64,000 bases of DNA from Chiloscyllium plagiosum. Lineage: Eukaryota. Positions within the stretch are counted from its first letter, which is position 1. Each line of letters begins with the position of its first letter. Below the pieces are notes generated by a model, which did not search any database, had not been told where the DNA came from, and was given only the letters and a program-made list of their open reading frames with translations. The stretch is taken from NCBI RefSeq assembly GCF_004010195.1, contig NC_057718.1, positions 39,798,579 to 39,862,578 of the forward strand. Reading direction: 5' to 3'. Positions 1,261-61,679 of this stretch are shown here, one piece after another. The position numbers and the translations under genes are program-made.

Positions 1261-1854
1261 GGATGTAGGTTTGTTCACTGAGGTGGAAAGTTCATTTTCA
1301 GAAGTTTCATCAACATACAAGGTTACATCTTCAGTGAGCCGCCAGACGAATCACTGCTGATGATTCCTTCTTTCTATTTATATGTTTGGGTTTCTTTGGG
1401 CTGGTGATGTAATTTCCTGATCTTTTTCTCAGGGAGTGGTAAATGGGATCCAAGTCAATGTGTTTGTTGAAAGAGTTTCGGTTGGAATGCCATGCTTCTA
1501 GGAGTTCTGATGCATCTTTCTGTTTGGCTTGACTTAGGATAGATATGTTGTCCCAGTCAAAGTGGTGTCCTTCCTTACCTGTCTGTAAGGATACTAGTGA
1601 GAGAGGGTCATGTCGTTTTGTAGCTAGTTGGTGTTCATGTATCTTGGTGGCTAGTTTTCTGCCTGTTTGTCCAATGTAGTGTTTGTTACAGTTCTTGCAC
1701 GGTATTTTGTAAATTAGTTTTGCTTGTTGTCTGTATACGGTTTTTCAAGTTCATTAGTTGCTGTTTTAGTATATTAGTGGGCGACCATGATTCCAGCAAG
1801 CAAACCCACATCCAGAACCTCAATCCGAGCTATAAATTTTCTCAAAACTTGCTA
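1261..1854 (-). mobile_element. Penelope-like element (family C), GIY-YIG end plus terminal repeat, with a short inverted end
   Basis: Minus-strand translation YKIPCKNCNKHYIGQTGRKLATKIHEHQLATKRHD is GIY-YIG-like. 13-bp TSD attttataaacct at 1248-1260 and 1855-1867. 1796-1853 is terminal sequence in opposite orientation. Confidence 0.85.
1298..1337 (-). ncRNA. Degenerate minimal hammerhead ribozyme motif (PLE family C)
   Basis: Minus strand: UCA CUGAAGA U GUAAC..GUUGAU GAA ACUU C UGA. Helix I UCA/UGA; the helix III palindrome is mutated (ACUU). Confidence 0.55.
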
Positions 1855-2234
1855 ATTTTATAAACCTCTACAAGGTCACCTCTCAACTTCCAATGCTCCA
1901 AAGTAAACTGTCCCAGCTTATCCAGCCTCTCCTTACAACTCAAATCTTCGAGTCAGGTAACATCCTTGAACCCTTTTCTGTATCCTTTCCAGTTTAATAA
2001 CGTCCTTCCTATGAGCAGAAACTTAACTGATCCTGCCATATATATATGGCTACAAGAGCAGGTCAGAGGCTAAGAATGCTGCAGCAAATACTTCACATTC
2101 TGACTCCCCAAACCTTGTCCACCATTCACGAGGCACAAGTCAGGAGTGTGATGAATATTCCCCACTTATCTGCATGGGTGCAACTCAAACACACTCATGA
2201 ATGTTAACACCATCAGGACAAAGCAGCCTACTTG

Positions 2235-2354
2235 GAAAAAAAAATTGTTAATCACCCTGTTCAGACATGTTATTACACATTTCTGGTGCAGGTGGGACCT
2301 GAACCCAGGTCACCTGGCTCAGTGCAGGGTCACTACCACTGTGCTACAAGAATA
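2235..2354 (-). mobile_element. Short (~120 bp) tRNA-derived SINE
   Basis: Minus strand has an A box (tagcacagtgg) and a B-box-like gggttcaggtccc; 8-bp TSD cctacttg at 2227-2234 and 2355-2362. Confidence 0.65.
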
Positions 2355-2431
2355 CCTACTTGATTGGCACCACATCTACAAGCATCCCCTCCCTCTTCCA
2401 CTGATGCTCCTTGGTTTCAGTGTACCTAGTG

Positions 2432-2479
2432 ATATACTGCAGACATTCACCACTAATATACTGCAGACATTCACCACTA
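2432..2479. repeat. Perfect 24-bp tandem duplication
   Basis: atatactgcagacattcaccacta x2. Confidence 0.9.
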
Positions 2480-2809
2480 ATTCTTAGACGGCATCTTCCA
2501 AACTCATGATCAGTTCCATCGAGAAGGACGAGGGCAGCAGATAGATGGGAACACCAGCTGCAAGTTCCCCTTCAAGCCATTCACCATCTTGATCTGAAAA
2601 TATATCACCATTCCTTCAATGCTGCTGGGCAAAAATCCTGGAATTTCCTCCCTCATGGCATTGTGGGTCTACCTCCAGCATATGGACTGCAGTAGTCAAG
2701 GCTGTAGCTCACCATCACCTTCTCAAGGGCAACTAAGGACTGACAATAGATGCTAGCCCAGTCAGCGATGCCCACGTTGCACAGTGAATAAAATAAATTC
2801 AGGCTGAAT

Positions 2810-4160
2810 GAAGGTTCCTCAAATGCCAGTTTTGGGACCTGCTTTTCCTGATTTATATATGCAGGAATTCAAAAGGACATTGACAACTTGGTGAAGTGGA
2901 GGGTTAGGTGCCAGATGAAATTCAATATGGTTAAGTACAAGGTAATGCACTTTAGGAGAAGTAACATGGTGAGACAGTATAAAATGTAAGATAGTGCTCT
3001 TAATGATATACAGGAGCAGAGAGACCTGAGAGTTTAAGTATCTAAGTATTTAAAGATGGCAGGATAAGTAGAGGGCACTGTTTATAACACATACAGTATT
3101 GTAGGTTTCATTAACAGGGGAATATAGTACAAGCTCAGGGAGGTTATGATGAACTTATATCAAACACTGATTAGGCCTTAGCTGGAGTATTATGTACAGT
3201 CACAGTGCCACAGAGTCATAGAGAAGTTCAGCATGGACACAGACTCTTCGGTCCAAATCATCCATGCCAATCAGATATCCTAAATTAATCTAGTCCCATT
3301 TACCAGCACTTGGTCCATGTCTTCTAAACCCTTCCTATTCATGTACCTATCCAGATGCCTTTTAAATGTTGTAACTGTACCTTCCACCACTTCCTTTGTC
3401 AGCCCATTCCATACAAGCATCACCTTCTGCGTGAAAATGTTACCTCTCAGGTCCCTTTTAAATCTTTCCCCTTGCACCCAAATCTATGCCCTCTAGCTCT
3501 GGACTCCCCCATCCCAGGGAAAAGACCTTGTCTATATACCCTGTTCATGCCCCTCATAATTTTATGAACTGCTATAAAGTCAGCCTATAGCCTCTGACGC
3601 TCCAGGGAAAACAGCCCCAGCCTATTCAGTCACTCCCTATAGCTCAAACCCTCCAACCCTGGCAACATTCTTGTAAATCTTTTCTGAACTCTGTCAAGTT
3701 TGATAGGAAGGTTGTGAATATACTGCAGAAAGTTCAGAAGAGGTTCACAAAATAGTTCCAGAGATGAGGACCATCAGTTGAGGATAGATCAGAGCTCTGT
3801 TCCTTGGACAGGAGAAAGCCGAGGGGAAATTGTGAGGACTCTCGGCAGAGCAGATGGGGAGAAACAGCTCTTGTTCGGACAAAGATTGTGAACCAAAGGG
3901 CACATCATTCAAGTGTTTTGTAAAAAGAAGCAAACTGTGAAGCAGGGAAAAAAAAACTTTTTCAGACAGCCCGTGGTTTCACTGCCTGGGAATGTGATGG
4001 AGGCAATTTCAGTTGAGACTTTCTGGAGGGCAATTGATGATTATTTAAATCAAAACAAAGTGCAGGGTTAAAGGGGAAAGGGCAGTAGATTGGCACTAAG
4101 TCAGAATCATCAGTGCCAGTACAGACAGGAAAGGCACAATGGCAGCCTTCAGGGATTCTG
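2810..4160 (+). mobile_element. Old CR1 LINE 3' fragment, interrupted at 3211-3701
   Basis: Decayed CR1 motifs (WQMKFN..K.KVMHFRR; LYQTLIRP.LEYYVQ; KVQKRFTK.VP). Confidence 0.7.
3211..3701 (-). mobile_element. HER1-like CR1 3' end
   Basis: ORF 3280-3477 (GERFKRDLRGNIFTQKV..VWNGL...FKRHLDRYM); tail seen as agagtcatagag on the + strand. Confidence 0.9.
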
Positions 4161-4429
4161 AGATTCCAGTTGCTTGATTAAGAATACAAAAACTCTAACT
4201 TACATTTTTAGTATTATAAAGTCACCAACAACCAGTTTATTTTACAGTAGCATTACAACAATCATTCTCCTTATAAACTGGTGTACTTTCAGATGAATAC
4301 TCAAATACCTCCTACTTTGTATCTCATTGGGACGCCATTAAAGTCCCATAGGCCTCCTGTCTCTCAGCATTTATCCACTTTTTGGAAGCTTCACTTACTA
4401 ATAAAAATCTTCACTGGCTGTCTCTCTTT

Positions 4430-4610
4430 GCAACACAGTGATGTCAAGAGTATGGGTTTAGTTCCATACTGGGCGAGATTCCATCTTCTCAACTTTGATC
4501 CCTGCCTGAGGCATGATAACCCTCAGGTTGACCTCACCACCACTTGTCTCTCTCTGATGAGAGCGCAGATCTATGGTCCTCTGGGGCTGCGGCAACTTTA
4601 TCTTTTATTA
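4430..4610 (+). mobile_element. Body of an old tRNA-derived SINE (core cctgaggc..accctcaggtt..caccacca; possibly MetaSINE-type)
   Basis: Related sequence at 45735-45920 (-) and a head-only copy at 14820-14940. Confidence 0.55.
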
Positions 4611-5727
4611 CCATGTATCATCTTGGAGGCTATTCAAAATTGATAGCCTTATCTCCTAATAAGCTACAAAGAATTACAGACAGCAAACCTGGATTACATC
4701 AAACACATATTTCCTCAGCGAACTCATTATGCATCAATCATTTCGCGAGAATAACAAATGCCAACCAGTACAAGTAGAAGAACGTCTTGGGTTACCGAGG
4801 TACAATAGTTAAGCATACAGTGCTAACAGGGGAACATTCAGAAAAGTAGTGAAGAAATGGATATCTGGGAGCAGACTGACAAGTTTCATACAAGAGAAGA
4901 ATGAATCTCACCCCATAATCTCAACCTAGAAACTACATTGTTGTTTACAGTGGAGAAAAACAGCTATTGAATGACAAACACAATTGGGATTTTGACTTTT
5001 AAAAAATTATTCCAATTAAAAGGATTTAAGTTGCAAATAGTTGGTTCATATGAGAGGATTAAATTTTGAGAGGCGCATCATGATCTATTGCCACAATTCA
5101 CTTATAACAGGAAAAGTCCCACCATCAAGATTCCTTGCATTTTTACAAATGATTGATGTGTGTGTCATACGCCTGGTGCAACATTCCACTGCAGTTATCA
5201 TGCAATCATATTCCATGCCAAATTTAATCTAGCTCCTGGGATAAGATCAAAATAATTTGCCAAATATATACCATTGAAAGACCAGCTACAGTGTTTATGT
5301 CAAATGTATTCATTTTAACAGGCACATTTTGTTTTACTAATTATTAGAGAAGCAAGATGTTGGAATTCCCCCATTACATAACCACTAATTTCAGAATACT
5401 GCCTTTTGCAAAGTGTAGTTTTGACAGAGCTCTTCACGAAACACAACATACTTTTACTGATCACAACTGTATATTTCAGTTTCCTCAATTCTATCACTTT
5501 GCACTATCCAAACAGTCTTCATTCAGGTAACTTTAAGCTAATGTAGAATATGTTGAAGTAACATTATGATCATTGAATGTTTAATAACTGAAAGAAAATC
5601 ACCAAAATGCATGAAATTTTTCATCGGACATGCAGAATTGAAAATTAATCTCACTTTCTCCCTTCACAATAGCATTACACTTCACAACGTTAGCAGTGTT
5701 GTAATGACAGCTAGCTATGGCAAACAT

Positions 5728-6579
5728 AGCTAAGTTCGGTACCCATAGGGAGGGCCTCAACCGGGACCTTGGGTTATTGTCACATTACAGGTGACCACCA
5801 TTGCATTATACACACACACACAGACACTCCTACATGCACACAGACACACACACACAGGCATCCTCTCAGAGACTTAGACCACTCTACATTCATGCACACA
5901 CATACGCACTCTCTCTCACAGGCACTCACAACCCCCCACCCCAGACACGCGCACACACTCCCATACGCACCCCCTCACAGACTTAAGACACTCTACACTC
6001 ACTACACACACATATACACCCTCTCTCACACTCACAACCCCCAACCCAGACAGACAGACAAAGACCCACATGCACACACATATTTTGTGGGGTGAATTTG
6101 TACTTGCAGAGTTACATTGTACTTTGCTCAAAAACTGCATGAATTCATGTAAAACTCTGTTATCTCACTTTATAGATTAGAATCAATCTAAACATCATGG
6201 CATAGGCAGAGAACACAGAGTGCTAACACCTTCAACATATTGTCTAGCTGTCACCATTGTTACAGCTAACCTGAGAATGCAACTTTTAAAAAAAGGTTTT
6301 GTGATTTACACATGAAAGAAGTGAAACCATCATGGTATTCGAACAGATGAAAGACTCAATAGACAATCAAGGTATTTTTCAATTTATAATTTCAGTTACA
6401 TCACACGGTAAATTTTTTCTATAAATTCTGTGCCTTAGAATTGTGTCCTCCACTATCACTTGATGAAGGAGCAGCGCTCCGAAAGCTAGTGTGCTTCCAA
6501 TTTAACCTGTTGGACTATAACCTGGTGTCGTGTGATTTTTAACTTTGTACACCCCAGTCCAACACTGGCATCTCCAAAT
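5728..6579 (+). mobile_element. Penelope-like element (family B), 5'-truncated, with CA-rich 3' region
   Basis: Starts at the ORF end (AKFGTHREGLNRDLG); carries a hammerhead-type terminal motif; 12-bp TSD tatggcaaacat at 5716-5727 and 6580-6591. Confidence 0.8.
6457..6491 (+). ncRNA. Minimal hammerhead motif (family B), core C3 mutated to U
   Basis: CAC uUGAUGA A GGAGC agc GCUCC GAA AGCU A GUG. Confidence 0.65.
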
Positions 6580-6947: not shown

Positions 6948-7034
6948 CTGTAAGAATACAACAGAAACCAATCTCATGTGGTTTGGCCAATTGATCAGAT
7001 TAGCAGCCAGTTGTGAAGTCACACTAATGGTTAC

Positions 7035-11095: not shown

Positions 11096-11110
11096 GGGGC
11101 AGGTTCTTAC

Positions 11111-12336: not shown

Positions 12337-13487
12337 AAGAGGTCAGGCAGCATTCCAGGAGCAGGAAAATCGACGTTTTGGGCAAAAGCCCTTCAATGGG
12401 AATGAGGCTGGAAGCCTAGGAGGTGGAGAGGTAAATGGAAGAAGGTGGGGCTGGGGGGAAAAGATGCTTATGGTGCGCCAGGTGGATAAAGGTGAGGGTA
12501 AAGGCGATATATCGGAGGGGAGGGTGGAGCGGATAGGTGGAAGGAAGGTGGACAGGTAGAATAGGTCATGAAGGCAGTGCTGAGCTGTAAGGTTGGAAGT
12601 GGATATGGTGGGGGGGGGGGGGTGCGAAGAGGGGAAATGAGGAAACTAGTGAAATCCACATTGATGCTATGGTGTTGGAGTGTCCGGAGGCAGAAGATCA
12701 GGCATTCTTCCTCCAAGCGTTGGCTGGTAAGGGAGTGGCGATGGAGGCAGCCCAGGACCTGCACGTCCTTGGTGGAGTGGGAGGGGGAGTTGAAGTGCTC
12801 AGCCACGGGGCAATGGGGTTGGCTGGTGTGGGTGTCCCGGAGATGTTCTCTCAAGTGCTCTGCAAGTAGGCATCCTGTCTCCCCACTTCCACACGTCATT
12901 TACCGTAGCCGTTGCTCCTGCTATGGTCTCCTCTACATTGGGGACACAGGATGCCTAGCGCTTCACAAAACATTTCCGGGACACCCACACCAACCAACCC
13001 CTCTGCCTCGTGGCTGAACATTTCAACTCTCCCTCCAACTCTGCCAAGGACATGCAGGTGCTGGGCCTCCTCCATCGCCACTCCCTTACCGCCGACACCT
13101 GGAGCAAGAACGCCTCATCCTCATGGCATCAATGTGGATTTTGCCAGTTTCCTCACTTCCCCTCCCCCAGCTTATCTCAGTTCCAACTTTCCAGTTCAGC
13201 ACCGCCCTCATGACCTGTCCATCTTCCTTCCCACCTATCCGCTCCACCCTGCCCTCTGACCGATCACCTTTACCCCCACATCCACCCACCTATTGCACTC
13301 TCCGCTACCTTCTCCCCAGCCCCACCCCCTCCCATTTATTTCTCCACCCCAGAGGCTACCTGCCTCATTCCTGATGAAGGGCTTTTGCCCGAAACATCGA
13401 TTCCTCGGATGCTGCCTGACCTGCTGTGCTTTTCCAGCACCACACCCTTTACTCAAATCTCCAGCATCTGTAGTCCTCACTTTCCTC
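12337..13487. mobile_element. Penelope-like element (family A), inverted two-arm structure
   Basis: Minus arm about 12340-12885 (GETGCLLAEHLREHLRDTHTSQPHCPVAEHFNSPSHS) and plus arm about 12886-13487 (VIY..RCSCYGLLYIGDTG, GIY-YIG). 12-bp TSD ttattactggac at 12325-12336 and 13488-13499. Confidence 0.9.
13369..13400 (+). ncRNA. Minimal hammerhead motif (family A), helix III CpG-decayed
   Basis: UC CUGAUGA A GGGC uuuu GCCC GAA ACAU C GA. Confidence 0.65.
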
Positions 13488-14940: not shown

Positions 14941-14959
14941 GGCGTACATGGAAAAGCTG

Positions 14960-22319: not shown

Positions 22320-22680
22320 TTCTTTTGTTTATTCATTCACAGGAAGAGGGGATCACTGGCTAGGCAGCATTTATTACCCATCCCCAATTATCCAGAGGAC
22401 AGTTCAAAGTCAACCACACTGCTGTGGGTCTGGAATCACATGTAGATCAGACCAGATAAGGATGGCAGTTTCTTTCCCTAAAGGACATTAGAGAACTAGA
22501 TGGGTTTCCCCAACAATCGACAATGGATTCATGGTCACCATTAGATTCTTAATTCCAGGCTTTTTTTTTAAATTGAATTCAAATTTCCTGCTCTGACAGG
22601 TTTTGAATCCAGGTCCCCAGAATATTATCTGGGTTTCTGGATTAACAGTCCAGCGATAATACCACTATACCATCACCTTC
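22320..22680 (-). mobile_element. tRNA-derived SINE with family-2 LINE tail
   Basis: Minus strand has a B-box-like ggattcaaaacc, body atgtgattccagaccc and tail gggatgggtaataaatgctg; homologous to 39410-39960. Confidence 0.7.
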
Positions 22681-23409: not shown

Positions 23410-23900
23410 TACTCTACACAGCAGCTCCGACACCATCTGTGGAGAACATGATTTGAAAGAACTGAAACCAACATGCGCATTCTAAAAGATGAGAGACAGT
23501 AAACAATCCAGGTAGTTTTCGATACATAATTTCAGTTACATCACACTGTAAACTGTTGCTATAAATTCTGTGTCTTAACAATCTTATACTCCACAACCAC
23601 CTGATGAAGGAGCAGCACTCCGAAAGCCAGTGCTTCCAAATGAACCTGTTGGACTATAACTTGTGATGTTTAAATCTGTGGAGAAAGAGTTAATATTTCA
23701 GGTCTGTGACCTTTTATCTAGAAAACTAGAAATGCAGTAGGTTTTGTGTAGGTTAAAATGATAGGGCGAGGACAAGGGAAAAAAGGGAACATCAATGATA
23801 GGATGGAGGACAGAAGAGATTATGGTGCAAGATCAAAGGGAATGGCAATGGGGCACGTAAGGAAACCAGAGAAGCGTGCAGACGTTGTGTGAATTGCAGG
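23410..23900 (-). mobile_element. Old PLE family D terminal fragment hosting a family B insertion
   Basis: atctgtggaga..gagttaatatttcaggtctgtgacctt resembles 33150-33227 joined to 34761-34790; degenerate hammerhead at about 23688-23727. Confidence 0.5.
23447..23673 (+). mobile_element. Short PLE family B terminal repeat with hammerhead motif (23598-23632)
   Basis: Homologous to 6310-6545; CAC CUGAUGA A GGAG..CUCC GAA AGCC A GUG; 12-bp TSD atctgtggagaa at 23435-23446 and 23674-23685. Confidence 0.8.
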
Positions 23901-30956: not shown

Positions 30957-31900
30957 TTATTTTCTGCTTTGTTTCTGCCTGCCCTGACTGTTTGACTTGC
31001 TCTTTTTCCCAACTGTATCAGTCTCAGATTGATCTATTTCCCAAGCAGTTCTGGCAAATCTCCCTGCTAGTATATTAGTCCCCTTCCAATTCTGGTGCAA
31101 TCTGTACTTCTTGTCCAGGTCACTTCTACCCCAGAACAGATTCCAATGATCCGAAAACATAAATCATTCTCCCCTGCACCAGCTCCTCAGCCACACATTC
31201 ATCTACTCTATCCTCCTAATCCTAATCTCACTACCTCATAGCGCTGTGAGTAATTCACATATTATTACCCTAGAGGATCTCCTTTTTAAATTCCTGCCTA
31301 ACTTTCTATACCCCCTCTTTAGAATCTCATCCTTTTCCTTCGCTATGTCATCAGTTCCAATGTGTACAATGACCTCCTGCTGGTCCCTCTCCCCTTTCTG
31401 TACCCTCTGTGAGACAACCTTGATTCTGGCACCAGAGAAGCAACACACCATTCTGATTTTTCACTGCTGGCTGCAGAGGTGTGTCTCTCTGTGCCTCGGA
31501 CTACAGAGTCCCCTAACACAATTGATCACTTGGAACCTGATGCACTCATTACATTCAAGCCAGTCTTGATACCAGAAAATTGGCTGTTTGTGCTACATTC
31601 CCCTGAAAGTCCATCACCCCTTCCATTTTCCAAAATAGTATACTTGTTGAAATGGGGTTAGCCACAGAAGACTCCTGTACTACCCACCTACCTCTTCTAT
31701 CTTTCTTGAAGTTAACCCTTTACCTGACCATATTTGCAGCTAGGGGATGTTTAGCTGTTGTAAATTCCTCATTGCCGCTTACCGTCGCTCCAACCGATCC
31801 ATTCGATTTGACAGAATTCACAACCAACAACATTTATTGCAGATATAATCCTCAGTAACCCTCAACTTCTACTGAAACGCCCACATCCGACAAGAGCATA
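30957..31900 (-). pseudogene. CR1 ORF1 (CxxC/zipper + SGNH esterase-like), disrupted
   Basis: EDYICNKCCWL..LSNRMDRLE; VCCFSGARI..VS..V...EVIVHIGTDDI; LHQNWKGTNILAGRFA. Confidence 0.8.
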
Positions 31901-33149: not shown

Positions 33150-35270
33150 ACCACAGACAAAAACAGAAATTGCTGGAAAACCTAGCAGGTCTGAAGCATT
33201 TGTGGATAGAAATCAGAGTTAACATTTAGAGTCACAGAGATGTACAGCATGGAAACAGACCCTTCGGTCCAACCCGTCCATGCCAACCAGATATCCCAAC
33301 CCAATCTAGTCCCACCTGCCAGCTCCCGACCCATATCCCTCCAAACCCTTCTTATTCATATACCCATCCTAATGCCTCTTAAATGTTGCAATTGTACCAG
33401 CCACCACCACTTCCTCTGACAGCTCATTCCATACACGTACCACTCTCTGTGTGAAAAAGTGGCCCCTGAGGTCTCTTTTATATCTTTCCCCTCTCACCCT
33501 AAACCTATGCCCTGTAGTTCTAGACTCCCTGACCCCAGGAAAAAGACGATTTACACTATCCATGCCCCTCATAATTTTGTAAACCTCTATCAGGTCACCC
33601 CTCAGCCTCTGACACTCCAGGGAAAACAGCCCCAGCGTGTTCAGCCTCTCCCTATAGCTCAAATCCTCTAACCCTGGCAACATCCTTGTAAATCTTTTCT
33701 GAACACTTTCAAGTTTCACAACATCTTTCCGATAGGAAGGAGACCAGAATTGCACGCAATATTCCAACAGTGGCCTAACCAATGTCCTGTACAGCCACAA
33801 TATGACCTCCCAACTCCTGCACTCAATACTCTGACCAATAAAGGAAAGCATACCAAACGCCTTCTTCACTATCCTATCTACCTGTGACTCCACTTTCAAG
33901 GAGCTATGAACCTGCATTCCAAGGTCTCTTTGTTCAGTAACACTAACTAGGACCTTACCATTCAGTGTATAAGTCCTGCTAAGATTTGGTTTCACAAAAT
34001 GCAGCACCTCGCATTTATCTGAATTAAACTCCATCTGCCACTTCTCAACCCATTGGCCCATCTGGTCAAGATCCTGTTGTAATTCAAGGTAACCCTCTTC
34101 GCTGTCCACTACACCTCCAATTTTGGTGTCATCTGTCAACTTACTAACTGTACCTCTTATGCTCGCATCCAAATCATTTATGTAAATGACAAAAAGTAGA
34201 GGACCTAGCAGAGGACCTTGTGGCATTCCACTAGTCACAGGCCTCTAGTCTGAAAAACAATCTTCCACCACCACCCTCAGTCTTCTTCCTTTGAGCCAGT
34301 TCTATATCCAAATAGCTAGTTCTCCCTGTATTCCGTGAGATCTAATCTTGCTAATAGTCTCCCATGGGGAACCTTGTCAAATGCCTTACTGAAGTCCATT
34401 TAGATCACACCTACCTCTCTGCCCTCATCAATCCTCTTTGTTGCTTCTTCAAAAAACTCAATCAAGTTTGTGAGACATGATTTCCCACGCACAAAGCCAT
34501 GTTGACTATCCCTAATCAGTCCCTGCCTTTCCAAATACATGTACATCCTGTCCCTCAGGATTCCCTCCAACAACTTGCCCACCACCGAGGTCAGGTTCAC
34601 CGGTCTATAGTTCCCTAGCTTGTCCTTACTGCCCTTCTTAAATAGTGGCACCACGTTTGCCAACCTCCAGTCTTCCGGCACCTCACCTGTGACTATCGAT
34701 GATACAAATATCTCTGCAAGAGGCCCAGCAATCACTTCTCTAGCTTCCCACAGAGTTCTAGGGTTCAGTGACTCTTCCTCAGAACTAATGGTAGCGAGGG
34801 AAAAGAGATGCAGAACATAGAGTGGGGAGGAGGGGATAAGGGGCAAATGGATCATGGAAATGCAACCCAAACAGAGAAAAATAGTTGGATAGAAAATGGT
34901 GTGAATAACCATCAGCAAACGAAAATTAATAGCTACAAATGGGGGCAATTAGTGGCTAACAATGGGTTGTGTATAGTAGCAGACCATGTGATAACAAGGA
35001 CTAATGTGTAGGTGTTGGGTTAAGGACAAGGGAGAAGGCGCCTCAAGCCCCTAAAATTGCTGAAGTCAATAATGAGTCCATAATGCTGTAGAGTTCCCAA
35101 GCGGAATATAAGGTATTGTTCATCTAGGCTGCACTGAGCTTCACTAGAGCACTGCAGCAAGCCTGAGACAGAGATGTGGGACAGGGGCCAAAGTGGTGCG
35201 TTGAAGTGACAGGCAACAGTAAGTTTAGAGACAGAATGTAGGAATTCTGCAAAGCGATCAGAGATAATCA
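33150..35270 (-). mobile_element. Penelope-like element (family D), split by a CR1 insertion
   Basis: ORF 35020-35271 (DRFAE.L...VACHFN...EQYLIFRLGTLQ..G..IDFSNF) is the GIY-YIG C-terminal part; terminal repeat lies at 33150-33227 and from 34761 onward. Confidence 0.8.
33228..34764 (-). mobile_element. HER1-like CR1, 1.5-kb 5'-truncated and relatively young
   Basis: 289-aa ORF 33369-34238 (SGMPQG..LGPLLFVIYINDLD...TDDTK) plus ORF 34400-34760. Confidence 0.97.
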
Positions 35271-36703
35271 AGCCACTGGAAAATATTCTATTTGAGGAAA
35301 AATTGCCCTCTTATCAAATTTAAGCTAAAGTTCCTCAGTACCAGAAACACACAAGAACAACAATGTGAAATTTCACAGCACTGTTTAATTGTGACAAAAT
35401 ATTCTAAAATGTTTCACAGGAGGGGAAACAAAACTCTTCTTGCTTTGGGCCAATGTAATTTTAAAAAAGGGTGGTTAAATGTTTATTTAAAAAGGTAGAG
35501 ATTAAGACTCTTAAGAGAGGAAGAGTCATTCAGTAAATAATAATTGGTTTTGAATATGGAATTGAAACCAAACAAAACGCAGATGTTGCAAACTGTGTTA
35601 AACTCTCTAATCTTGATATTCTAATATACCAATAATAATGCTGAGTCATCTACTTAGACATTTATAGCACAGAACAAAGGCTTTTGGTCATGTTGATGCC
35701 AGTCAACAAGGATCTGACTGCACTAATCCCATTTTCCAATTACTGTTCCACAGCTCTGGATACTGCAGCAATGCAAGTGAATATCTAACTACTGCTTAAA
35801 ATGTTGAGAGTTTCTGACCCGGCCATTCTTTCAGGCATCGAGTTCCAATCTCCACCACCTTCTGGGTGAAACATTTCTCCTAACACTCTTCCCAGCTTTC
35901 TACCTCTTCCATGACTGACCCCTCTACGGAGGGAAAAAGTGCTTTCCTCGGCACCCTATCATAATCTTATACATACCTATCAGGTCCTTATTCAGCTTTG
36001 CTGCTCCAAAGAAAACAACCCCAGTCTATACAATTTTTCCTCGTAGGTCGGACCCTTCAGCCCAGGCAGCATCCTGGTAAATTGCCTCAGCACCCTCTCT
36101 GGTGCAGTCCCATGCTATGAAGTACATGCAGGAATCCAATTATAGCCTAAGCAGCATTTTATGCAGTTTCAGCATTTCCTCCTTGCTTCTTGTATTCTCC
36201 CCCTCAGCTAAAGGCAACTATCCTGCAGGCCTTCGTAACCACCGCCATTCTATGCTCAGGAATCTGTGGATGTACACACACAAGATCCCTCTGACCTTTA
36301 GTACCTTCTAGGGTGCCACCATTCATAGCATAATCCTTTGCCTTATTCGACCTCCCCAAGTCCATTACCTCACACTTATTCATTTGTTCCACAATTCCAT
36401 TTGTCACTGCTCTGTCCACCTGACCAGTCTCTGTCTACATCCTCCTGCAGGTTACCATCATTCTCCTCACTATTTTCATGTCACCCGCAAACCTCTTGAT
36501 CATCCCCCTTGCATTCAAGTCTAAATCATTAATGAATTCCAAAAACAGCAAAGGTCCCAGCATTTAGCCTTGCGGAGCCCCATTGGAAAACAGACTTCCC
36601 ATCACAGAAACATCCTCAACTACCATCCTTAGCTTCCTGCTTCTTGGCTAATTTTGGATCCATTGTACTACTTCGCTTTGAATCTCATGACTCTTATTTT
36701 CTT

Positions 36704-37196
36704 GGTAAAAACAATGACTGCAGATGCTGGAAACCAGATTCTGGATTAGTGGTGCTGGAAGAGCACAGCAGTTCAGGCAGCATCCAAGGAGCAGTGAAAT
36801 CGACGTTTCGGGCAAAAGCCCTTCATCAGGAATAAAGGCAGTGAGCCTGAAGCGTGGAGAGATAAGCTAGAGGAGGGTGGGGGTGGGGAGTAAGTAGCAT
36901 AGAGTACAATGGGTGAGTGGGGGAGGGGATGAAGGTGATAGGTCAGGCAGGAGAGGGTGGAGTGGATAGGTGGAAAAGGAGATAGGCAGGTAGGACAGGT
37001 CTGGACAAGTCATGGGGACAGTGCTGAGCTGGAAGTTTGGAACTAGGGTGAGGTGGGGGAAGGGGAAATGAGGACGGAGGCAGGCACTGAGGAAGCAAAT
37101 GCGGCTGTGGTAGCGAGTTTGTTTCACGACATGGTTGAAGAGCTTCAGGGCAGAGGAAATGACCTGTGAGTTGCAGTGGGAGAGGGACTCCCAGAG
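36704..37196 (-). mobile_element. PLE family A terminal repeat plus adjacent sequence
   Basis: Nearly identical to parts of 48087-48624; contains an intact hammerhead motif. Confidence 0.85.
36800..36831 (-). ncRNA. Minimal hammerhead ribozyme motif, intact core (family A)
   Basis: UC CUGAUGA A GGGC uuuu GCCC GAA ACGU C GA; predicted cleavage after GUC. Confidence 0.75.
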
Positions 37197-38696
37197 ATTC
37201 TTGACCAGTGTGTCATCAGAGATCTCGTTAAACCCTTGCAAGTCCACTATAGACCACATCAAATGCATTACCTTCATCAACATGTCTGATTACTGCCTCA
37301 AAAATTAACAAGTTTATCAAACACAATCTTCCTTTAATAAATCCATATTGACTATCTGTCATAAATCCCACTCTCTCCAAATGCAGATTTATTCTATCAT
37401 TCAAAATTCTTTCTAATAAATTTCTTACAACAGAGGTTAAACTGACTGGCCTGACATTTTCTGGTCTATCCCTCCCTCCCTTTTTTGGTAGAGGGACAAT
37501 GTTAGCAACCTTCCAGTCCTCCACCCTGATGACTACATCTACATCATGCTTTTCTACTGTGAGGACTGATGCAAAGTATTCATTGAAGACTCGGCTCATG
37601 TCTTCTGGATCCACATATACAGACTACTTCTCTGGTCTCTAATGGGCCCTACCCTTTCCCTCGTCAATCTCTTGATCTTCATACATTTAAAAGACTTCTT
37701 TGTTCTACATCACACCACTCCCCAACTCCCACCTCAACACTTTTTCATGTACTGTCTTAGCTTTCCTTAGTTCCTTTTTAAGTTCCCTTCTGCAATTTCA
37801 ATCCTCTCAGGGCTCTGTGCTATTAAGTCTTCAAAATCTGCTGTAAGATTCTCTGATTCAAATGTTTTACTCAGTAAGTTTAAATCATCTTGCAGCATGT
37901 TTTCAAATCATTTGGAAAAACAAATTGATACTGTTATGCCCAAAACAAAAGGATTATTCCACTTTTATATTGGGAAGAATAAATATATTTTACCTCAATA
38001 ATGTTTCACAATTTATCAGTATGAGCAGCAGAAAGGATAACCACTCTTGTTTCTGATGTGATGTTTCTTCTTCAAATATTATGAAAACTAGCTTTCAGTT
38101 TTCATTCTGGTTTTCAAATAGTTTGGAAAAATTACCATAAAATTCTGTCAAAATATTAAGGAGGATACATTTTCGTATGTAATGAGTCATGCTTAAGTTC
38201 TCCAATAAAAAAAAGAATGTTATATGTCGGCTCTTTGACAAAAATAAGGTGTGTTTAATTATAATAGTGACATATGTAATGTTGTTGTAACAATAAACTG
38301 CCTTTACATTTAGTTCCTCTGAGAAAATCCCATGATGCTTCACAAATCAGCAATAGGAAAATAAATGCAGATTAAGCAAGGTACAGATTGGGAGCAGTGA
38401 CAGAAAGCTTGACCAAAATAAAGCATCATGCGATTGTTAAGATTAAGGATGGAGAGGCTTATTGAGGAAGATAAGGACTTTGAATGCTTTGTGGTCTGGG
38501 AACTTCACATTACAGCATAGATTAGAGACCTCCCAGAGGAAAAATCCAGTAATAAAAGGGGAAATGAATTTACTGTCATACTAGATATCCATTTTTAGAT
38601 GTATGAGTCAAACCAGAATGTGCAATTTGCTAGTTTTGCTGGTTCTTCCTTCTGGGTAGACAGGTCTGTACCTACAGAAATCAGCTAAGTGCTATC

Positions 38697-39762: not shown

Positions 39763-39856
39763 TTGAAAAATGTGGCATTGGAAAAGCACAGCAGGTCAGG
39801 CAGCATCCAAGGTTCAGGAGAGTCGACGTTTCGGACATAAGTCCTTCATCAGGAAT
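39763..39856 (-). mobile_element. ~94-bp PLE family A terminal derivative
   Basis: Only the hammerhead and downstream terminal sequence; flanked by tgactccagac / tgaccccagac. Confidence 0.8.
39823..39854 (-). ncRNA. Minimal hammerhead ribozyme motif, intact core with compensatory helix II
   Basis: UC CUGAUGA A GGAC uuau GUCC GAA ACGU C GA. Confidence 0.75.
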
Positions 39857-48086: not shown

Positions 48087-48624
48087 GGTAAAAACAATAA
48101 CTACAGATGCTGGAAACCAGATTCTGGATTAGTGGTGCTGGAAGAGCACAGCAGTTCAGACAGCATCACATCCACTAATATCATTTACTGTATCCGTTGC
48201 TCCCGATGCAATCTCCTCTACATTGGGGAGACTGGGCGCCTCCCAGCAGAGCGCTTTAGGGAACATCTCCGGGACACCCGCACCAATCAACCACACCGCC
48301 CTGTGGCCCAACATTTCAACTCCCCCTCCCACTCTGCCGAGGACATGGAGGTCCTGAGCCCGGACTTGTCCTACCTGCCTAGCTCCTTTTCCACCTATCC
48401 ACTCCAACCTCTCCTCCCTGACCTATCACCTTCATCCCCTCCCCCACTCACCCATTGTACTCTATGCTACTTGCTCCCCACCCCCACCCTCCTCTAGCTT
48501 ATCTCTCCACACTTCAGGCTCACTGCCTTTATTCCTGAAGAAGGGCTTTTGCCTGAAACGTCGATTTCGAAGCTCCTTGGATGCTGCCTGAACTGCTGTG
48601 CTCTTCCAGCACCACTAATCCAGA
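48087..48624 (+). mobile_element. PLE family A, internally deleted, with inverted ends
   Basis: TSTNIIYCIRCSRCNLLYIGETGRLPAERFREHL (GIY-YIG); inverted repeat about 48123-48158 / 48588-48624; 14-bp TSD acatggttttaaaa at 48073-48086 and 48625-48638. Confidence 0.92.
48533..48564 (+). ncRNA. Minimal hammerhead ribozyme motif, core intact (family A)
   Basis: UC CUGAAGA A GGGC uuuu GCCU GAA ACGU C GA. Confidence 0.7.
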
Positions 48625-51642: not shown

Positions 51643-52101
51643 GCTGAAAATCTGTTGCTGGAAAAGCGCAGCAGGTTAGGCAGCATCCAAGGAGCAGGAG
51701 AATCGACGTTTCGGGCATGAGCCCTTCTTTAGGAATGAGGAAAGTGTGTCCAGCAGGCTAAGATAAATGGTAGGGAGGAGGGACTTGGGGGAGGGGCGTT
51801 GGAAATGCGATAGGTGGAAGGAGGTTAAGGTGAGGGTGATAGGCCGGAGTGGGGGTGGNNNNNNNNNNNNNNNNNNNNNNNNNNNNNNNNNNNNNNNNNN
51901 NNNNNNNNNNNNNNNNNNNNNNNNNNNNNNNNNNNNNNNNNNNNNNNTATAGAGGAGGCCACATTGGGTGCAGCAGATGCAGTAAATTATGTGTGTGGAG
52001 GTGCAGGTGAATTTGTGGCGGATGCTGCCTGATCTGCTGCACTTTTCCAGCAACACATTTTCAGCTCTGATCTCCAGCATCTGCAGTCCTCACTTTCTCC
52101 T
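51643..52101. mobile_element. PLE family A with inverted ends, spanning an N gap
   Basis: KFTCTSTHIIYCICCTQCGLLY on the minus strand; hammerhead at 51703-51734 has a mutated core (CUAAAGA); 15-bp TSD ccatcagttaatgta at 51628-51642 and 52102-52116. Confidence 0.88.
51859..51947. other. Assembly gap (89 N)
   Basis: Run of n. Confidence 1.
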
Positions 52102-55141: not shown

Positions 55142-56520
55142 GTGAGTACAAAGTAAAAAAAGTATGTGTTTTATTAATCTACTTGTGAATGTTTTTCCAT
55201 TGTCATATTTTTTATCATATTTGTCAATATTTATCACTGTAAATTACCTTAACATGTTCCACTGAAATTTTCCAGTCAGTGATTCAGTTTTGATGAGGTT
55301 CCATTTGTACATATACACACTGACACACAGAAATTTCTCATTGGAATACAGAACTTAGGAGGAGGAGTAGTAGGTCAAATTATGATTGTTCCCCAAAGGA
55401 TTAGCTTTAAAGGTATTGTAGTTTACAAGAGAAATCTTGGTTGAACTGATAAGTCAACCTAAGGGCCTAACATCTCTGAACATAAATTATAGAGTTCACT
55501 TAATCATATTTGCTTTGTTTAATTGTTCTATATAAAATAGTATTTGTATTTTGTTTAAAAGATATGAATCTTGGATTGGAGTTGGTTAAAACAGGGCATT
55601 TGAAATGTTAATGGGGCCCATAACTGTATCATATTTTGTACTTTAGCACAAAAAGGGAAACTGAAAATATTTTATTACAGGTACAATGAGCCTCCAACAG
55701 TTTGCCAGATTTTATTTTATCAAGAGTAAAATGTACCTCATGCTGTGGGCTGCTTCTTGTTTAAACTATTAACACTACTCCTTATCCAGCTGGTTCTGCC
55801 CTGTTGTAGGTCAGCTTGAGTAAATGTGATAACAGTGGCAGACCCAAGCCATCGATCATTGTCACACGCTGCCTGGTAAACAGGCCTTGCTGGGAGGCGA
55901 AACTTAGTGCTGTATCCTTCTGAACACAAGGCAAACCTGTAGCACTCTGCAACTGTGTTCACTGCAGAAACACACACTTTTGTGGTAATGCATTGCAACT
56001 TAGGGGACTCAACATCACTGATTGCATGGAACTTTAGGGGCAGGAACAGTTGCTCAGATATCATAATTACGCTATCAATTTTACACTTTTTTCAATATTG
56101 ATGGAGTTCCTATAGGCCAACAAGAGTAACATAACCAGAAGGAAGTAGCAGGTCCAACCACAAGTCATCAGTAGCTCGATTTCTTAGCAGCATCTGACCT
56201 TTAGAAGAAGGAAATGAAACCCGCTAGTGAGGTGGCCTTCCTTACAATGAAGGAAAGTTGATCATTTGTATCACAAGCCTGTTTCTGACAGTGGGAACTA
56301 TGAAATATTTACAGATTTTGGTGGTAAAAGTATGGTTACAATGACAAAGTAAAAAATTGTCTTTGAATATCTCATATAGAAAACAAACTGAAATTCAATT
56401 GAGCTAATCATAATCCCATAAATGGAAGGAGTCAATATAGTTACATCTTCATTTATTCAGCAATAATCGGATCAGTAATCACACTACACCAATTTATAGT
56501 CCAACAGGTTCATTTGAAAT

Positions 56521-56557
56521 CTCAAGCTTTTGGAGCGCTGCCCCTTCGTCAGGTGAT
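56521..56557 (-). ncRNA. Degenerate minimal hammerhead motif (G12 mutated to A)
   Basis: CAC CUGACGA A GGGGC agc GCUCC aAA AGCU U GAG. Confidence 0.55.
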
Positions 56558-56818
56558 GTGAAGAAAAGCACACTGGCATAGAATTTATAGGCAAAGAGAT
56601 CAAAAGATCACACAAATGGTGTGAGTGGTGTGTCGACAGTAATCCAAAACCGTACAAACAAATTAACGTTGTTTTCTGCAAACGATGGTCTATCCACGGT
56701 TTGACAGTTGTTTGAAGGTGAGAAGTTGCTGCATATGAATGGTGTTGGCAAGATATTTGTCATCACCAATGACATGTTGAAGAATACAAAGAACATGGAG
56801 TAGTTTCGCTGCTCCGGG

Positions 56819-57467
56819 TGTCTCAAAGCTAGTCCATTTTTTTTTCTAAAAGCTGTTCCTTGGCAAAAGGATACTCTGTCCTTGATTTTTTTCAGAGGGG
56901 TAATAAACCAGGCCAGGCTCCAATCAATCTGGTTTGGGACAGAAATGAAAAGGATTTTGAGAAGCCTTTTGTTTATATGTAACCAGATGAGACTTCAGGC
57001 CAAAGTGGTCATGTTTTAGAAGTGACCTGTACAATGAAAGGGGAGTGGTCAGCGCTTTCACTGAGCAATTTTAGTTTAGTCCTGAACTGGTTGGAAGTTC
57101 AACAGTGAGCTGTGTGGAAACTCTCCTTCTCTCCCTTTCTGCCCTTCAACTTCAACCTGTAAGCATATGTTCCATTTATACTGGTTTTTAAAAGGAGTTT
57201 GCTTATTGGGACTGTTGTATATATTCCGAACTGCATAATTAAGTCTAGTTTGTATAGGCTGAGTTTTGTAGGAGTTCTTTATTCTATTCTTTGTGTTTCA
57301 TTGTGTAATTTTGTGAATAAATTCTTGTTTGTTTTAAAATCTAGTAGACAACCTGGCTAACTTACTCCGGGTAATTTTCACTGTAAACTTACCGAAACAA
57401 ATTGCAAACATTTGCTCTGGGCTTCCTGCTTAAGAATGCTTTGAGTGATCTAGCCTAGTCCATTACA
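56819..57467 (+). mobile_element. Solo LTR (649 bp)
   Basis: TG...CA ends; 5-bp TSD ccggg / caggg (one mismatch); cleanly interrupts PLE coding sequence; internal aataaa. Confidence 0.7.
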
Positions 57468-57796
57468 CAGGGAGTACAGGACGACAAAGGGTATTCTATC
57501 GGTCATGTCCTGTATCTGTCTTCTGAGGCACAACAAACTACCCAGCCTTCAGAGCAACATCAACCACAACACCACACAACCCTGCCACAGCAAACTCTGT
57601 AAAACACACCAGATCATCGACATAGATACTACCATCACATGTGGGAACACTACCCACCATGTACACAGCAAATATTCATGTAACTCAGCCACTGTTGACT
57701 ACCTCATACGCTGCAGGCAAGGATGCCTCGAGGCATGGTAAATTGATGAGACCATGCAGATGACACAAAAACTGATGAACGGACACCGTGCAACAA

Positions 57797-58296
57797 NNNN
57801 NNNNNNNNNNNNNNNNNNNNNNNNNNNNNNNNNNNNNNNNNNNNNNNNNNNNNNNNNNNNNNNNNNNNNNNNNNNNNNNNNNNNNNNNNNNNNNNNNNNN
57901 NNNNNNNNNNNNNNNNNNNNNNNNNNNNNNNNNNNNNNNNNNNNNNNNNNNNNNNNNNNNNNNNNNNNNNNNNNNNNNNNNNNNNNNNNNNNNNNNNNNN
58001 NNNNNNNNNNNNNNNNNNNNNNNNNNNNNNNNNNNNNNNNNNNNNNNNNNNNNNNNNNNNNNNNNNNNNNNNNNNNNNNNNNNNNNNNNNNNNNNNNNNN
58101 NNNNNNNNNNNNNNNNNNNNNNNNNNNNNNNNNNNNNNNNNNNNNNNNNNNNNNNNNNNNNNNNNNNNNNNNNNNNNNNNNNNNNNNNNNNNNNNNNNNN
58201 NNNNNNNNNNNNNNNNNNNNNNNNNNNNNNNNNNNNNNNNNNNNNNNNNNNNNNNNNNNNNNNNNNNNNNNNNNNNNNNNNNNNNNNNNNNNNNNN
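57797..58296. other. Assembly gap (500 N)
   Basis: Run of n. Confidence 1.
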
Positions 58297-60121
58297 GATC
58301 ACTATACAATGTTGAGACCCTTTGGTAAACATTTGTCCAACGCCAAACCTTTCCAATGTGTAAAACAAATATGACCATTCAACCCTATCGAATGCTACTA
58401 CTCCAGGTATCTTTCCCTGATGGCAGGCTTGAATCATATTCAAAACCCTTCTAATATTATTGGATGATCTACGGCCCTTAATAAACCTCGTCTGATCCTC
58501 CTTTATGATATGTGGCAGTACCCTCTCTAGTCTCAGTGCTAACGTTTTAGAAAGGATTTTAAAATCTACATTTTGCAAGGATATTGGTCTGTATGACGTA
58601 CAATCTTCTGGATCCTTTCCTTTTTTAAGGATAAGAGAGATATTTGCCTCTTTCAGCGAAGGCGGGAGACAACCCTGACTATATGCATAGTTATACATGT
58701 CCATAAGTGGACCAGCCAATATTTCTGTAAATCCATTATAGAATTCAGATTGAAAACCATCTGGGCCAGGAGCCTTGCAGCTCTGAAGTTGCCTTATTGC
58801 ATCAAGTATTTCTTGGACTGTTAGGGGAGCATTTAAGACCGATACCTGTTCCGGAGTTAGAATAAAATTCTCTAAAGATCGCATTAATCTTTTTGTGATC
58901 ATGAGTCAAAATACCCGTACTTTCCTTGATAGACGTAATAGTTTGAGGGGCCTTTTGTTTCTTTGCAAGAAATGCTAAGTATCTACCCGGTTTGTCGCCA
59001 AATTCATATAACCATTGTTTTGCAAATAATATTTCCCTCTTAGCCGTTTGGGTAAGCGTAGTGTTTAGAGTTGTCCTAAGGGCCGTAATCCTTTGCAATT
59101 TAATAAAAGAAGGTCTATCAGCGTATGCTGTTTCAGCTGCTTTTAAGCGAGCTTCGAGCAGATGCTGTTGTTCTCCCTTTAATTTTTTCTGGGTCGCTGA
59201 GTAGGAGATGATCAAACCTCGCGCGTAAGCTTTGATGGTCTCCCACATCATTGATGGGTTGATAGCTGTACCTGAATTAATTTCTAAAAAAGTTTTAAAT
59301 TCTTGAGAGAAGTACTTTACAAATTTACTATCTTTCATTAGGAAGGGGTCCATATGCCAATGCTGAGGGGATGTCCCATTGTTCCTCTCCTTGGTTTCTA
59401 TATATACAGCAGCGTGGTCGGAAATTGCTATACTACCTGTTTTACGGATGATATGGAATTTTAAAAAAACGAGGGGGCAAAAAACATATCAATTCTGGTA
59501 TGACATTTATGTGGATTGGAGTAAAAAGAAAAATCTGCCCTGTGGATGAAGACATCTCCATACATCTACTAATCCGAATTCTTTATTCAAATCCACCAAT
59601 TGTCTAGATCTGGGAGTTACTCCTGCAGTACTCTTGGGAATCCTATCTATTTCCGGATCCATAATATAATTAAAGTCTCCCCCTATAATTATATGACGGG
59701 CATCAAAAGCCATCAATTTTGAAAAGGCTTCCGTTATAAATTTAAAGGGGTGTGCCGGGGGGCAGTACAAATTTAAAATCCCATATTCCTGTCCATTTAT
59801 GAGAGCTTTAATCAAGATATATCGTCCAGATTCGTCTTTTATCTGCTTTAGGATTTTGAAAGGGAAATTCTTCCGAATAAGAATAACAACTCCCCTGCTT
59901 TTTGAGCTAAAAGAAGAAAAAAAGGCCTGATCAAATCCACCCTGTTGTAATTTCAAGTGTTCTTTATCCAATAGGTGTGTTTCCTGTAGGAGAGCTATAT
60001 CAACTCTTTCTTTCTTAAGATTTGATAATATTTTCTTCCTTTTGACTGGCAAATTACTCCCCTTGACATTCCAGGTGCACCACTTAACCGACTGATCAAC
60101 CATAATCGTCCAGGCAAACAT
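58297..60121 (-). mobile_element. L1-clade LINE ORF2, N-terminal half (APE + start of RT), frameshifted
   Basis: TWNVKG...KRKKIL..LKK..VDIALLQETHL; IIGGDFN; LVDVWR.LHP; WETIKAYARG.II; KAPGPDGF..EFY; YRPISLQNVDFKILSKTLA.RL..VLP.II..DQ..FIKGR. Confidence 0.93.
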
Positions 60122-60141
60122 CTGACATTTTTAATCAGCTG

Positions 60142-60351
60142 GGAGAAAGTGAGGACTGCAGATGCTAGAGATCAGCATCAAAGAATGTGGTGCTGGAAAA
60201 GCACAGCTGGTCAGGCAGCATTTAAAGTGCAGGAAAATCGATGTTTCCAGCATAAAGAATCATGATGAAGAGCTTATGCTCGAAACATCGATTGTCCTGC
60301 TCCTTGGATGCTGCCTGACCAGCTGTGCTTTTCCAGCGCCATATTCTTCGA
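60142..60351. mobile_element. ~210-bp fold-back derivative of the PLE family A terminal repeat
   Basis: Arms about 60178-60255 and 60273-60351 are reverse complements; central hammerhead AUGAUGA A GAGC uuau GCUC GAA ACAU C. Confidence 0.8.
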
Positions 60352-60468
60352 CGTTTGATCACCTGCAGAGACCTATTATTTGGCCTGTTGACATTCTTCT
60401 CACACCATTTGTGTGATCTTTTGAGCTCTTTGCCTATAAATTCTGTGCCTGTGTGTTTTTCTTCACAT

Positions 60469-60503
60469 TACCTGATGAAGGAGCAATGCTCCGAAAGCTT
60501 ATG
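60469..60503 (+). ncRNA. Minimal hammerhead motif, core intact (family B-related)
   Basis: UAC CUGAUGA A GGAGC aau GCUCC GAA AGCU U AUG; first helix I pair is mismatched. Confidence 0.65.
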
Positions 60504-61679
60504 ATTTCAAATAAACCTGTCGGACCATAACCTGACGTCGTGTGACTTCTGACCTTGTCCATCCCAGTCAAACACAAGCACCTTCAATTTGGATTTTTCC
60601 AGGGACACACAGCCTAAAACTTCTTTGCAGTTTTGGTCCAAACATGAACTGAAGAGCCGGATTTCAGAGAGCAGGTGAGTGTCCCAATTATGAGGTCAAT
60701 AAAATATTATCTGGATTGAGTCTTTTTCAAGAAAATGCAGCAGGTTGTGTGATCTGTTCTGGAATCTGCCTGGAAGTAAGCCTGGGTGGTTTGATTGTTA
60801 GAGATCAAAGGAAGCCTCAGATTGTTTAACTAAGTATAAGGTGCATGTGTAGACAAGGAGTCTCCCCAAAAGGTGTTATAGGTAATGTGTTGTAAACAGT
60901 GGTGCTGTAATTTATCTATTCACTGAAGATGAAAAAGAGTTGGGATGAAAGATCACTAATTTGTACTTCCAATTAGATACAAAAGGTAATAGTTCCCATG
61001 GTTGTAGGGGAAAGAGTAAAGGAAGCTATTTTTGAAATTAGGTTACAGACCTCCCTGTCCACCTATGAATAAATCAGACAGCAGTTCCCTGTTTTCTACA
61101 GTCTGGTGTACAGCCAAGTGAGGTAGAAAGAAGCGAAAGAAACAGAGAAGGTTTACATGCTATGAAAATGTTGACCTTGTAGGTGAGATCTTGCACTCAG
61201 GATAAAGTCAACATTCATAAGAATTTAAGGGAGGCTGGTAGAGGCGCCTCTCTTGGAGCTAGAGGAAAAGATCAAGATTCATAATCCTTATGGTGAAAGA
61301 CTGTTCTGGGATTAAAAGTGGCAAAGTGGAAACAGAAGCAAGCCATTGGGAGCAGAGAATAACAGACTAGTTCTTGGGAGATCAAGTGCCCATTCAATGA
61401 TCAGTGTAATGATACCCATAGAGGTATTCACTCAGCTGCGCTCGAATTAGGGGATCTCTTTTCTGTTGTTTAAAGTCGAAATTGCCAATGGGAAGAAAAG
61501 GATATCTAATCAACAAGTTTTCTCTTTGTATTTTGTTACAGTAAAAATTTCAAATCCTGGTGTCATTTTCCTGTTACCTGAAAGTTCAATTTTTTCCTTA
61601 AAAAATATCAGCCTCTACAGAGAACACAGTAAGAGACAACCACTAATATCATTTTACAATCCTTGACAGTATTTGACTG

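Follow-up and report, generated by a model that had tools for sequence, protein, structure and literature searches.

Hammerhead motifs in the window

The DNA considered here is a 64,000-nucleotide stretch of the bamboo shark Chiloscyllium plagiosum (contig NC_057718.1, positions 39,798,579 to 39,862,578 of the forward strand), referred to as the window, which carries fifteen short hammerhead-like motifs or remnants of them: eight of a family A, four of B, one of C and two of D. With considerable confidence, these are read as minimal hammerhead ribozymes (min-HHRs) in the 3′ pseudo-long terminal repeats (pseudo-LTRs) of 5′-truncated copies of Penelope-like elements (PLEs), such that dimers formed by parent elements would cut and the copies in the window would be inert. 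Both strands were scanned with a relaxed descriptor, comprising helix I, CUGANGA, 0–1 extra nucleotide, a helix II of 4–6 bp, GAA, a four-letter palindrome, H and the second strand of helix I, and each site named in an earlier note, made from the sequence alone, was also inspected. A motif or a remnant was present at all 13 of those sites, the coordinates given there being left ends, and a homology search added two further family A copies on opposite strands (12399, minus; 19000, plus) together with three inverted tail fragments. The motifs and the features associated with them are as follows, with short names in brackets.

36800–36831, minus strand: family A motif (36829), undamaged, 0 deviations; helix I 2 bp, helix II GGGC/GCCC, palindrome ACGU; predicted cut between 36802 and 36801
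39823–39854, minus strand: family A motif (39852), undamaged; helix II GGAC/GUCC, with a compensatory pair
48533–48564, plus strand: family A motif (48535) whose 10.1-11.1 pair is G-U; its insertion is flanked by a 15-bp target duplication (48073/48625) and carries an inverted 5′ tail
48168–48359, plus strand: GIY-YIG remnant upstream of motif 48535 (PF01541, E 8e-6, above cut-off), 91% identical to Chiloscyllium protein P0001
13369–13400, plus strand: family A motif (13371), palindrome changed to ACAU; it is the right-hand arm of an inverted insertion flanked by a 12-bp target duplication (12325/13488)
12370–12401, minus strand: family A motif (12399) with decayed core, absent from the earlier note; left arm of the inverted insertion shared with 13371
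12642–13168, no strand assigned: inverted pair of endonuclease C-terminal remnants between motifs 12399 and 13371, found by tblastn with P0001–P0004
19003–19028, plus strand: family A motif (19000), truncated within the core at its 5′ side, absent from the earlier note; 16-bp target duplication (18949/19088)
51703–51734, minus strand: family A motif (51732) with G5A; GIY-YIG start at 51949–52038 and a 15-bp target duplication
60260–60291, plus strand: family A motif (60262) with C3A and ACAU; helix II GAGC/GCUC; inverted tail copy before the motif (60179–60255)
6457–6491, plus strand: family B motif (6460) with C3U, in an insertion at 5728–6579 with a 12-bp target duplication (5716/6580)
5729–5791, plus strand: last codons of the family B open reading frame (ORF), an endonuclease C-terminus, 83% identical over 23 amino acids to P0019 (E 6e-6)
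23598–23632, plus strand: family B motif (23601) with AGCC and one helix II mismatch; AGCU and the pair are restored in paralogs
23639–23659, plus strand: position of the family B poly(A) signal (AATGAA here, AATAAA/ATTAAA in paralogs) and poly(A) site (23656–23659); predicted cut 23629/23630
23560–23565, plus strand: TATAAA about 40 nt upstream of the family B core, invariant in all four B copies
56521–56555, minus strand: family B motif (56552) with G12A and damaged helix I, found by the descriptor
60469–60503, plus strand: family B motif (60472) with broken helix I; intact AATAAA at 60510–60515
1298–1337, minus strand: family C remnant with a mismatched helix II, U as the extra nucleotide and palindrome ACUU; its insertion, flanked by a 13-bp duplication (1248/1855), lies within a CR1 copy
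1340–1829, minus strand: family C GIY-YIG remnant, 70–77% identical to the shark reverse transcriptase (RT)/GIY-YIG protein P0005; Pfam GIY-YIG below cut-off (E 0.0095)
23688–23727, minus strand: family D remnant (D23721) with an insertion in the core, AGGUC/GACCU and AUAU
34762–34786, minus strand: 5′ half of a family D motif (D33216, from 34782/33216), with a helix I strand, CUGAGGA and the extra A
33216–33234, minus strand: 3′ half of the same motif, beyond a CR1-type LINE insertion (RVT_1 at 33369–34241)
35053–35286, minus strand: family D endonuclease C-terminal remnant (tblastn E 3e-16 with P0004, 3e-7 with P0001), homologous to that of family A

The descriptor search for which the earlier note had called, carried out at the scale of the window, returned 3, 7 and 10 matches at 0, up to 1 and up to 2 deviations, compared with means of 0, 0.03 and 0.6 (maxima 0, 1 and 4) in 150 dinucleotide shuffles. 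The ten matches are six A and four B copies, and since the shuffles fall far below that count, these ten motifs are not a product of chance. At up to 3 deviations the window gives 15 matches and the shuffles a mean of 5.3 with a maximum of 15, a count which can thus be reached by chance, and even at this setting the descriptor misses the family C copy and both D copies. An Rfam scan of the window found no hammerhead family, only five chance-level matches (E 2–4.4), and a family A covariance model recovered 11 family A pieces, one chance match and L001, with no copy of B, C or D. L001 was also the sole match of a pattern scan of metagenomes; it lies antisense to a long bacterial-looking ORF and was rejected as chance.

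State and conservation of the copies

Of the 15 motifs, only 36829, 39852 and 48535 are free of damage, the last with its G-U at 10.1-11.1, and families C and D are present in the window as remnants; the earlier note had overstated how intact the motifs are. Damage falls in the core of 51732 (G5A), 60262 (C3A), 6460 (C3U) and 56552 (G12A), and elsewhere takes the form of a broken helix I or of altered palindromes (ACAU twice, AGCC, ACUU), with several of the changes at CpG sites. The core CUGANGA ... GAAA ... UH is complete in 36829, 39852, 48535, 13371, 23601 and 60472. The extra nucleotide after A9 is an A in every family A copy (8/8), every family B copy (4/4) and both D copies, and a U in C; the 10.1-11.1 pair is G-C in six A copies and G-U in the other two, G-C in all four of B and A-U in D23721; and the loopless palindrome reads ACGU in 6/8 A and AGCU in 3/4 B copies, having decayed in C and D. 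Copies 36829 and 39852 are both undamaged and both on the minus strand, 3,023 nt apart; they are separate insertions and could pair only if co-transcribed.

As to the earlier claim that pairing is kept while sequence changes, the stems differ between families A and B and two helix II pairs of family A are compensatory; the amount of covariation that a single window can show had been overstated. Within family A, 60 of 62 stem cells are paired, compared with 12–41% in slid controls, and the two helix II pairs that changed on both sides, in one copy each, were equalled in 5/500 shuffles, which is a weak control; intact copies of C and D are too few for covariation across families. Terminal repeats described as otherwise unalignable are indeed so for most pairs of families (comparisons with B or C tails, p 0.04–0.96). 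The description fails for A and D: family A tails align with that of D33216 in 4/4 comparisons (p 0.001–0.015) and the ORF C-termini of the two are homologous, hence the independence of these two families had been put too strongly.

Carrier elements

Endonuclease remnants, either GIY-YIG or C-terminal ORF pieces, lie upstream of at least one motif in each of the four families, and upstream endonuclease ends are present also at 12399/13371, 51732 and 34782. For the family C remnant the identity to a Stegostoma protein is 77%, and there are further matches in Chiloscyllium and Hemiscyllium. P0019, which matches the family B ORF end, itself aligns with P0004 in the endonuclease end of the latter (E 1e-8), tying that ORF end to the endonuclease; a word-index protein search with the family B C-terminus gave no match among 11 candidates, an exhaustive search gave two, and Pfam names neither. 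No PLE RT was matched within the window, where only endonuclease ends are present, and the relatives P0001 and P0005 carry RT and GIY-YIG parts that both fall below Pfam cut-offs.

Target duplications of 12–16 bp flank seven of the 12 insertions tested, and 5′ truncation, inverted 5′ pieces and a tail beyond the hammerhead are all seen among insertions in the window; inverted 5′ pieces and tails are described for PLEs in the accessible part of PMC8557442. Within 23435–23727, the family B insertion 23601, with a 12-bp duplication (23435/23674), sits inside the tail of a family D copy on the opposite strand. D33216 is a single family D copy whose hammerhead was split mid-motif by a 5′-truncated CR1-type LINE, and the letters that resemble the 3′ strand of its helix II also form the 3′ end of each of four other CR1 copies, which makes this helix unreadable. 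About 5.1 kb to the left of the LINE inside this hammerhead (33216–34786) there is a related CR1 copy (repeat families D11 and D18–D20). None of the eight tandem arrays listed covers a motif.

The relatives also bear on the kind of PLE involved. P0001, related to family A, has a CX5CXXC stretch before GIY-YIG, and P0005, related to family C, is without one; the part of PMC8557442 available sets the Neptune clade apart from the Penelope/Poseidon clade by an extra Cys-rich motif within the linker that joins RT to endonuclease. This pattern would fit a Neptune-type A and a Poseidon-type C. Judged by their predicted endonuclease ends, three of the families (A, B and D) appear related and one (C) distinct. 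P0005 reads through the family C repeat, and its same-frame peptide would be compatible with an intact motif. Family-C-like PLE sequence, which may be either exonised repeats or annotation artefacts, occurs in three shark gene models, P0006, P0014 and P0017, named as isoforms of MAP3K7, CUE-domain protein 2 and ZSWIM7. On the minus strand, a short open stretch at 37080–37220 directly adjoins the 3′ part of the element that carries motif 36829, and it may be the ORF start of that element, in what would be an internally deleted copy.

A poly(A) site behind the family B motif

Reads of four runs were mapped to 23440–23900 at 80% likeness, among them X21, a poly(A) single-cell library whose species label differs from that of the best DNA runs. 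X21 supplied 3149 reads, of which 2218 are under 90% alike to the window copy and nearly all come from paralogs. In these paralogs both defects of 23601 are repaired: 23617 A>G, on the main strand, restores helix II in 1356/1782 reads, and 23628 C>T restores AGCU in 1734/1855 (93%). Other substitutions within the motif, among those listed, are confined to loop II, with no core variant among them. The paralogs have AATAAA or ATTAAA 10 nt past the predicted cut (23642 G>A in 1715/1740 and 23640 A>T in 818/1740), and the ATTAAA form also accounts for 35% of the contig depth in X17 and 21% of that in X15. Around 1,300 X21 reads (at least 609 and at least 688) end in A-runs behind 23656 and 23659, some 28 nt past the cut, and at least 221 continue into GU-rich sequence, as do DNA contigs (346 and 329).

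Depth is flat across the motif with a strand bias of about 6:1, and the majority strand is presumably sense RNA for this type of library; the poly(A) RNAs therefore hold uncut ribozyme. Such a library would not capture cut pieces of 28 nt, and X21 would accordingly give no estimate of the share of RNA that is cleaved. A 2-nt insertion in 380/2165 X21 reads, nearly absent from the DNA contigs, suggests that a few loci supply many of the poly(A) reads. The poly(A) result comes from one run and perhaps from few loci, where priming from an A-run in a particular copy may contribute. Use of the family B repeat as a poly(A) site by host genes is equally possible. The four B copies in the window all run past the poly(A) site without an A-tract, and the poly(A) RNA was therefore not their template; three of the four have also lost the hexamer. 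No canonical hexamer was seen within 70 nt in the family A and C copies checked, and no RNA run appeared among the matches listed for the family A stretch.

A tentative and rather doubtful proposal can be built on this arrangement, in which the family B pseudo-LTR resembles the R region of a true LTR, with a TATA-like box, a hammerhead, a selected signal and a GU-rich element, and dimer cleavage acts as a switch. A full-length family B mRNA would then have two hammerheads, one near the cap and one 28 nt from the poly(A) tail, and cleavage of the dimer would strip both ends at once, giving a unit-length, ligatable RNA. X21 reads extend upstream of the TATAAA box, and the promoter described in the available text of the Drosophila virilis promoter paper is TATA-less, with 'polyadenylation' going unmentioned in that text. 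If correct, stripping of cap and tail would explain why all four genomic B copies pass the poly(A) site without an A-tract, and would assign a definite function to a ribozyme whose part in the PLE cycle stays open in the accessible parts of PMC8557442 and PMC11167929. The family B site offers a testable handle in either case: if it is the 3′ end of the element itself, cleavage would remove tail and cap together, and if host genes use it, an abundant repeat would be spreading poly(A) sites that have an uncut ribozyme immediately upstream of them.

Interpretation and alternatives

The earlier note had taken the motifs for minimal type I hammerheads in PLE terminal repeats, and this agrees with the published consensus and traits and with the PLE context seen in the window. 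Its further deduction, that a helix III devoid of a loop calls for two copies, is the same as the published min-HHR model. In an active parent element, one transcript across both pseudo-LTRs would carry two motifs, whose ACGU or AGCU palindromes would pair into a shared 4-bp helix III with helix I forming crosswise, and each core would cut after GUC (family A) or CUA/CUU (family B) to leave unit-length RNA. The need for a dimer is taken from the literature, as is the likelihood that cleavage would proceed only with help from the element's own protein; activity of the parent we infer. Pairing across families is unlikely, because the helix I strands or the palindromes differ. The solo copies in the window would be dead-on-arrival insertions undergoing neutral decay and are most likely inert, with 12 of 15 damaged and none in a complete element.

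A number of observations weigh against this interpretation. Self-cleavage of the shark motifs is a prediction from sequence, and the family C and D motifs are reconstructed from remnants, for which read mapping gave no usable D consensus. Covariation in family A rests on two single copies, and five of the 12 insertions tested lack a clear target duplication, with only 5–8 letters in common. The core of family A is also no better conserved than the downstream tail (77/85 compared with 211/232), but equal identity is what copies decaying after insertion should show, and this within-window comparison is accordingly uninformative. Folding with ViennaRNA gave the 36829 monomer an inactive rod as its minimum (−11.4 kcal/mol), with the core base-paired to the palindrome region, and gave the active dimer −11.7 kcal/mol against −24.6 for the best co-fold, a calculation that ignores the tertiary energy of the core; RNAalifold on seven of the eight family A copies (leaving out the truncated 19000) returned the inactive rod plus helix II and not a hammerhead. 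The predicted preference for a rod over the dimer would fit weak, protein-assisted cleavage. As reported in the available part of PMC11167929, the anole element retains insertion in vitro when its hammerhead is mutated and the cut is not marked by RNA-seq ends, and in that of bioRxiv 10.64898/2026.07.22.740005 one of nine Xenopus dimers was cleaved and eight were not.

It is conceivable, though on balance unlikely, that the motifs share this ancestry and rarely or never cut in the shark, being kept as a structural or protein-binding part of the pseudo-LTR or as a passenger. The inactive rod as predicted ground state of family A and its helix I of just 2 bp would agree with this, as would the poly(A) reads that span the uncut family B motif with no pile of ends among those listed; furthermore, insertion in vitro does not need cleavage according to the same part of PMC11167929, and the portion of PMC8557442 seen describes Naiad PLEs that thrive without canonical hammerheads. 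Set against it are the core letters, extra nucleotide and palindrome common to families with unalignable flanks, the anole catalytic mutants, which behave as for a true ribozyme (PMC11167929, in part), and the 28-nt products, which would escape the library type of X21. Co-option of some copies by the host, with B copies serving as host poly(A) sites or 39852 and 36829 pairing in one pre-mRNA, is improbable. Reads at the B site have the sense bias and the 2-nt variant suggestive of few source loci, and 39852 and 36829 share helix I and palindrome, but the X21 reads come from paralogs and not from the window locus, the hexamer is lost in most window B copies, no host exon was found among the 150 of 263 stop-free stretches scanned, and a young age would account for two of the eight copies being undamaged.

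There is very little to recommend the view that the copies belong to the non-LTR retrozymes, which are non-autonomous tandem repeats that spread via circular RNA. Such elements derive from pseudo-LTRs and are reported from one chondrichthyan genome in the available part of the same bioRxiv paper, and several window copies are without ORF sequence; no motif lies within any listed tandem array, however, and the ORF ends, target duplications and inverted pieces of the copies are what truncated PLE insertions typically show. That the resemblance to so short a motif arose by chance has next to no likelihood: shuffles can equal the observed count at three deviations and L001 demonstrates that chance matches occur, but the counts at up to two deviations refute it for A and B, all motifs belong to repeat families and each family has at least one copy downstream of a PLE ORF end.

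Other features of the window

Three features lie apart from the motifs. A LINE that contains an N gap, its AP endonuclease and RT being distributed over several frames, occupies 57700–60130 on the minus strand. A Pfam OSK-domain match (E 4e-7) at 31239–31460, also on the minus strand, is presumably the esterase-like first ORF of a CR1-type LINE. A weak tRNA-like match below the Rfam cut-off at 22609–22679 (minus strand) is possibly the head of a tRNA-derived SINE.

Comparison with known systems

The earlier note had left it open whether this architecture had been described. It has: the accessible part of Cervera and de la Pena (2014; PMC4209133) defines the min-HHR by a loopless palindromic helix III, with dimer formation, and by a nucleotide after A9, and only shark examples are missing there. 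The motifs of the window share with that class the type I topology, CUGANGA followed by one nucleotide, the G10.1-C11.1 pair, the loopless helix III with ACGU or AGCU and a short helix I, as well as their location in pseudo-LTRs, the many divergent families per genome and the prevalence of solo copies of truncated elements. In the core, families A and B agree in every letter with the consensus in Fig. S3 of that paper, and the rows of that figure include ACGU, AGCU, a 2-bp helix I and C, U or A at H17. The helix II of A and B, at 4–5 bp, is at the short end of the published range, and no chondrichthyan occurs in the 56 rows or Table S1 of the material available. A review (PMC6765202, seen in part) cites Lunse, Weinberg and Breaker for PLE variants with a very short palindromic stem III that cleave as dimers, and the shark motifs are like these variants in that stem.

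PAc, a Poseidon element of Anolis, is likewise a vertebrate PLE with a hammerhead in its pseudo-LTR and an insertion tail downstream of the cut site; its hammerhead, in the available account (PMC11167929), cleaves only with the protein of the element and is dispensable for insertion in vitro. Activity has been assayed for PAc, whereas the shark motifs are known from their sequence. Non-LTR retrozymes, as described in the part of the bioRxiv paper at hand (10.64898/2026.07.22.740005), also have type I hammerheads derived from pseudo-LTRs, in one Chondrichthyes genome; they are tandem non-coding units, unlike the dispersed truncated PLE insertions of the window.

A literature search for shark and PLE hammerheads returned one irrelevant mention, and one for a poly(A) signal or site just behind a PLE hammerhead found no report among the papers listed, nor was a counterpart to the family B site found in the accessible part of PMC4209133. 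Cartilaginous fishes are thus added to the animals whose PLEs carry minimal hammerheads, which was to be expected. The kind of ribozyme is already known, and the unexpected extra is the used poly(A) signal just behind the family B cut site.

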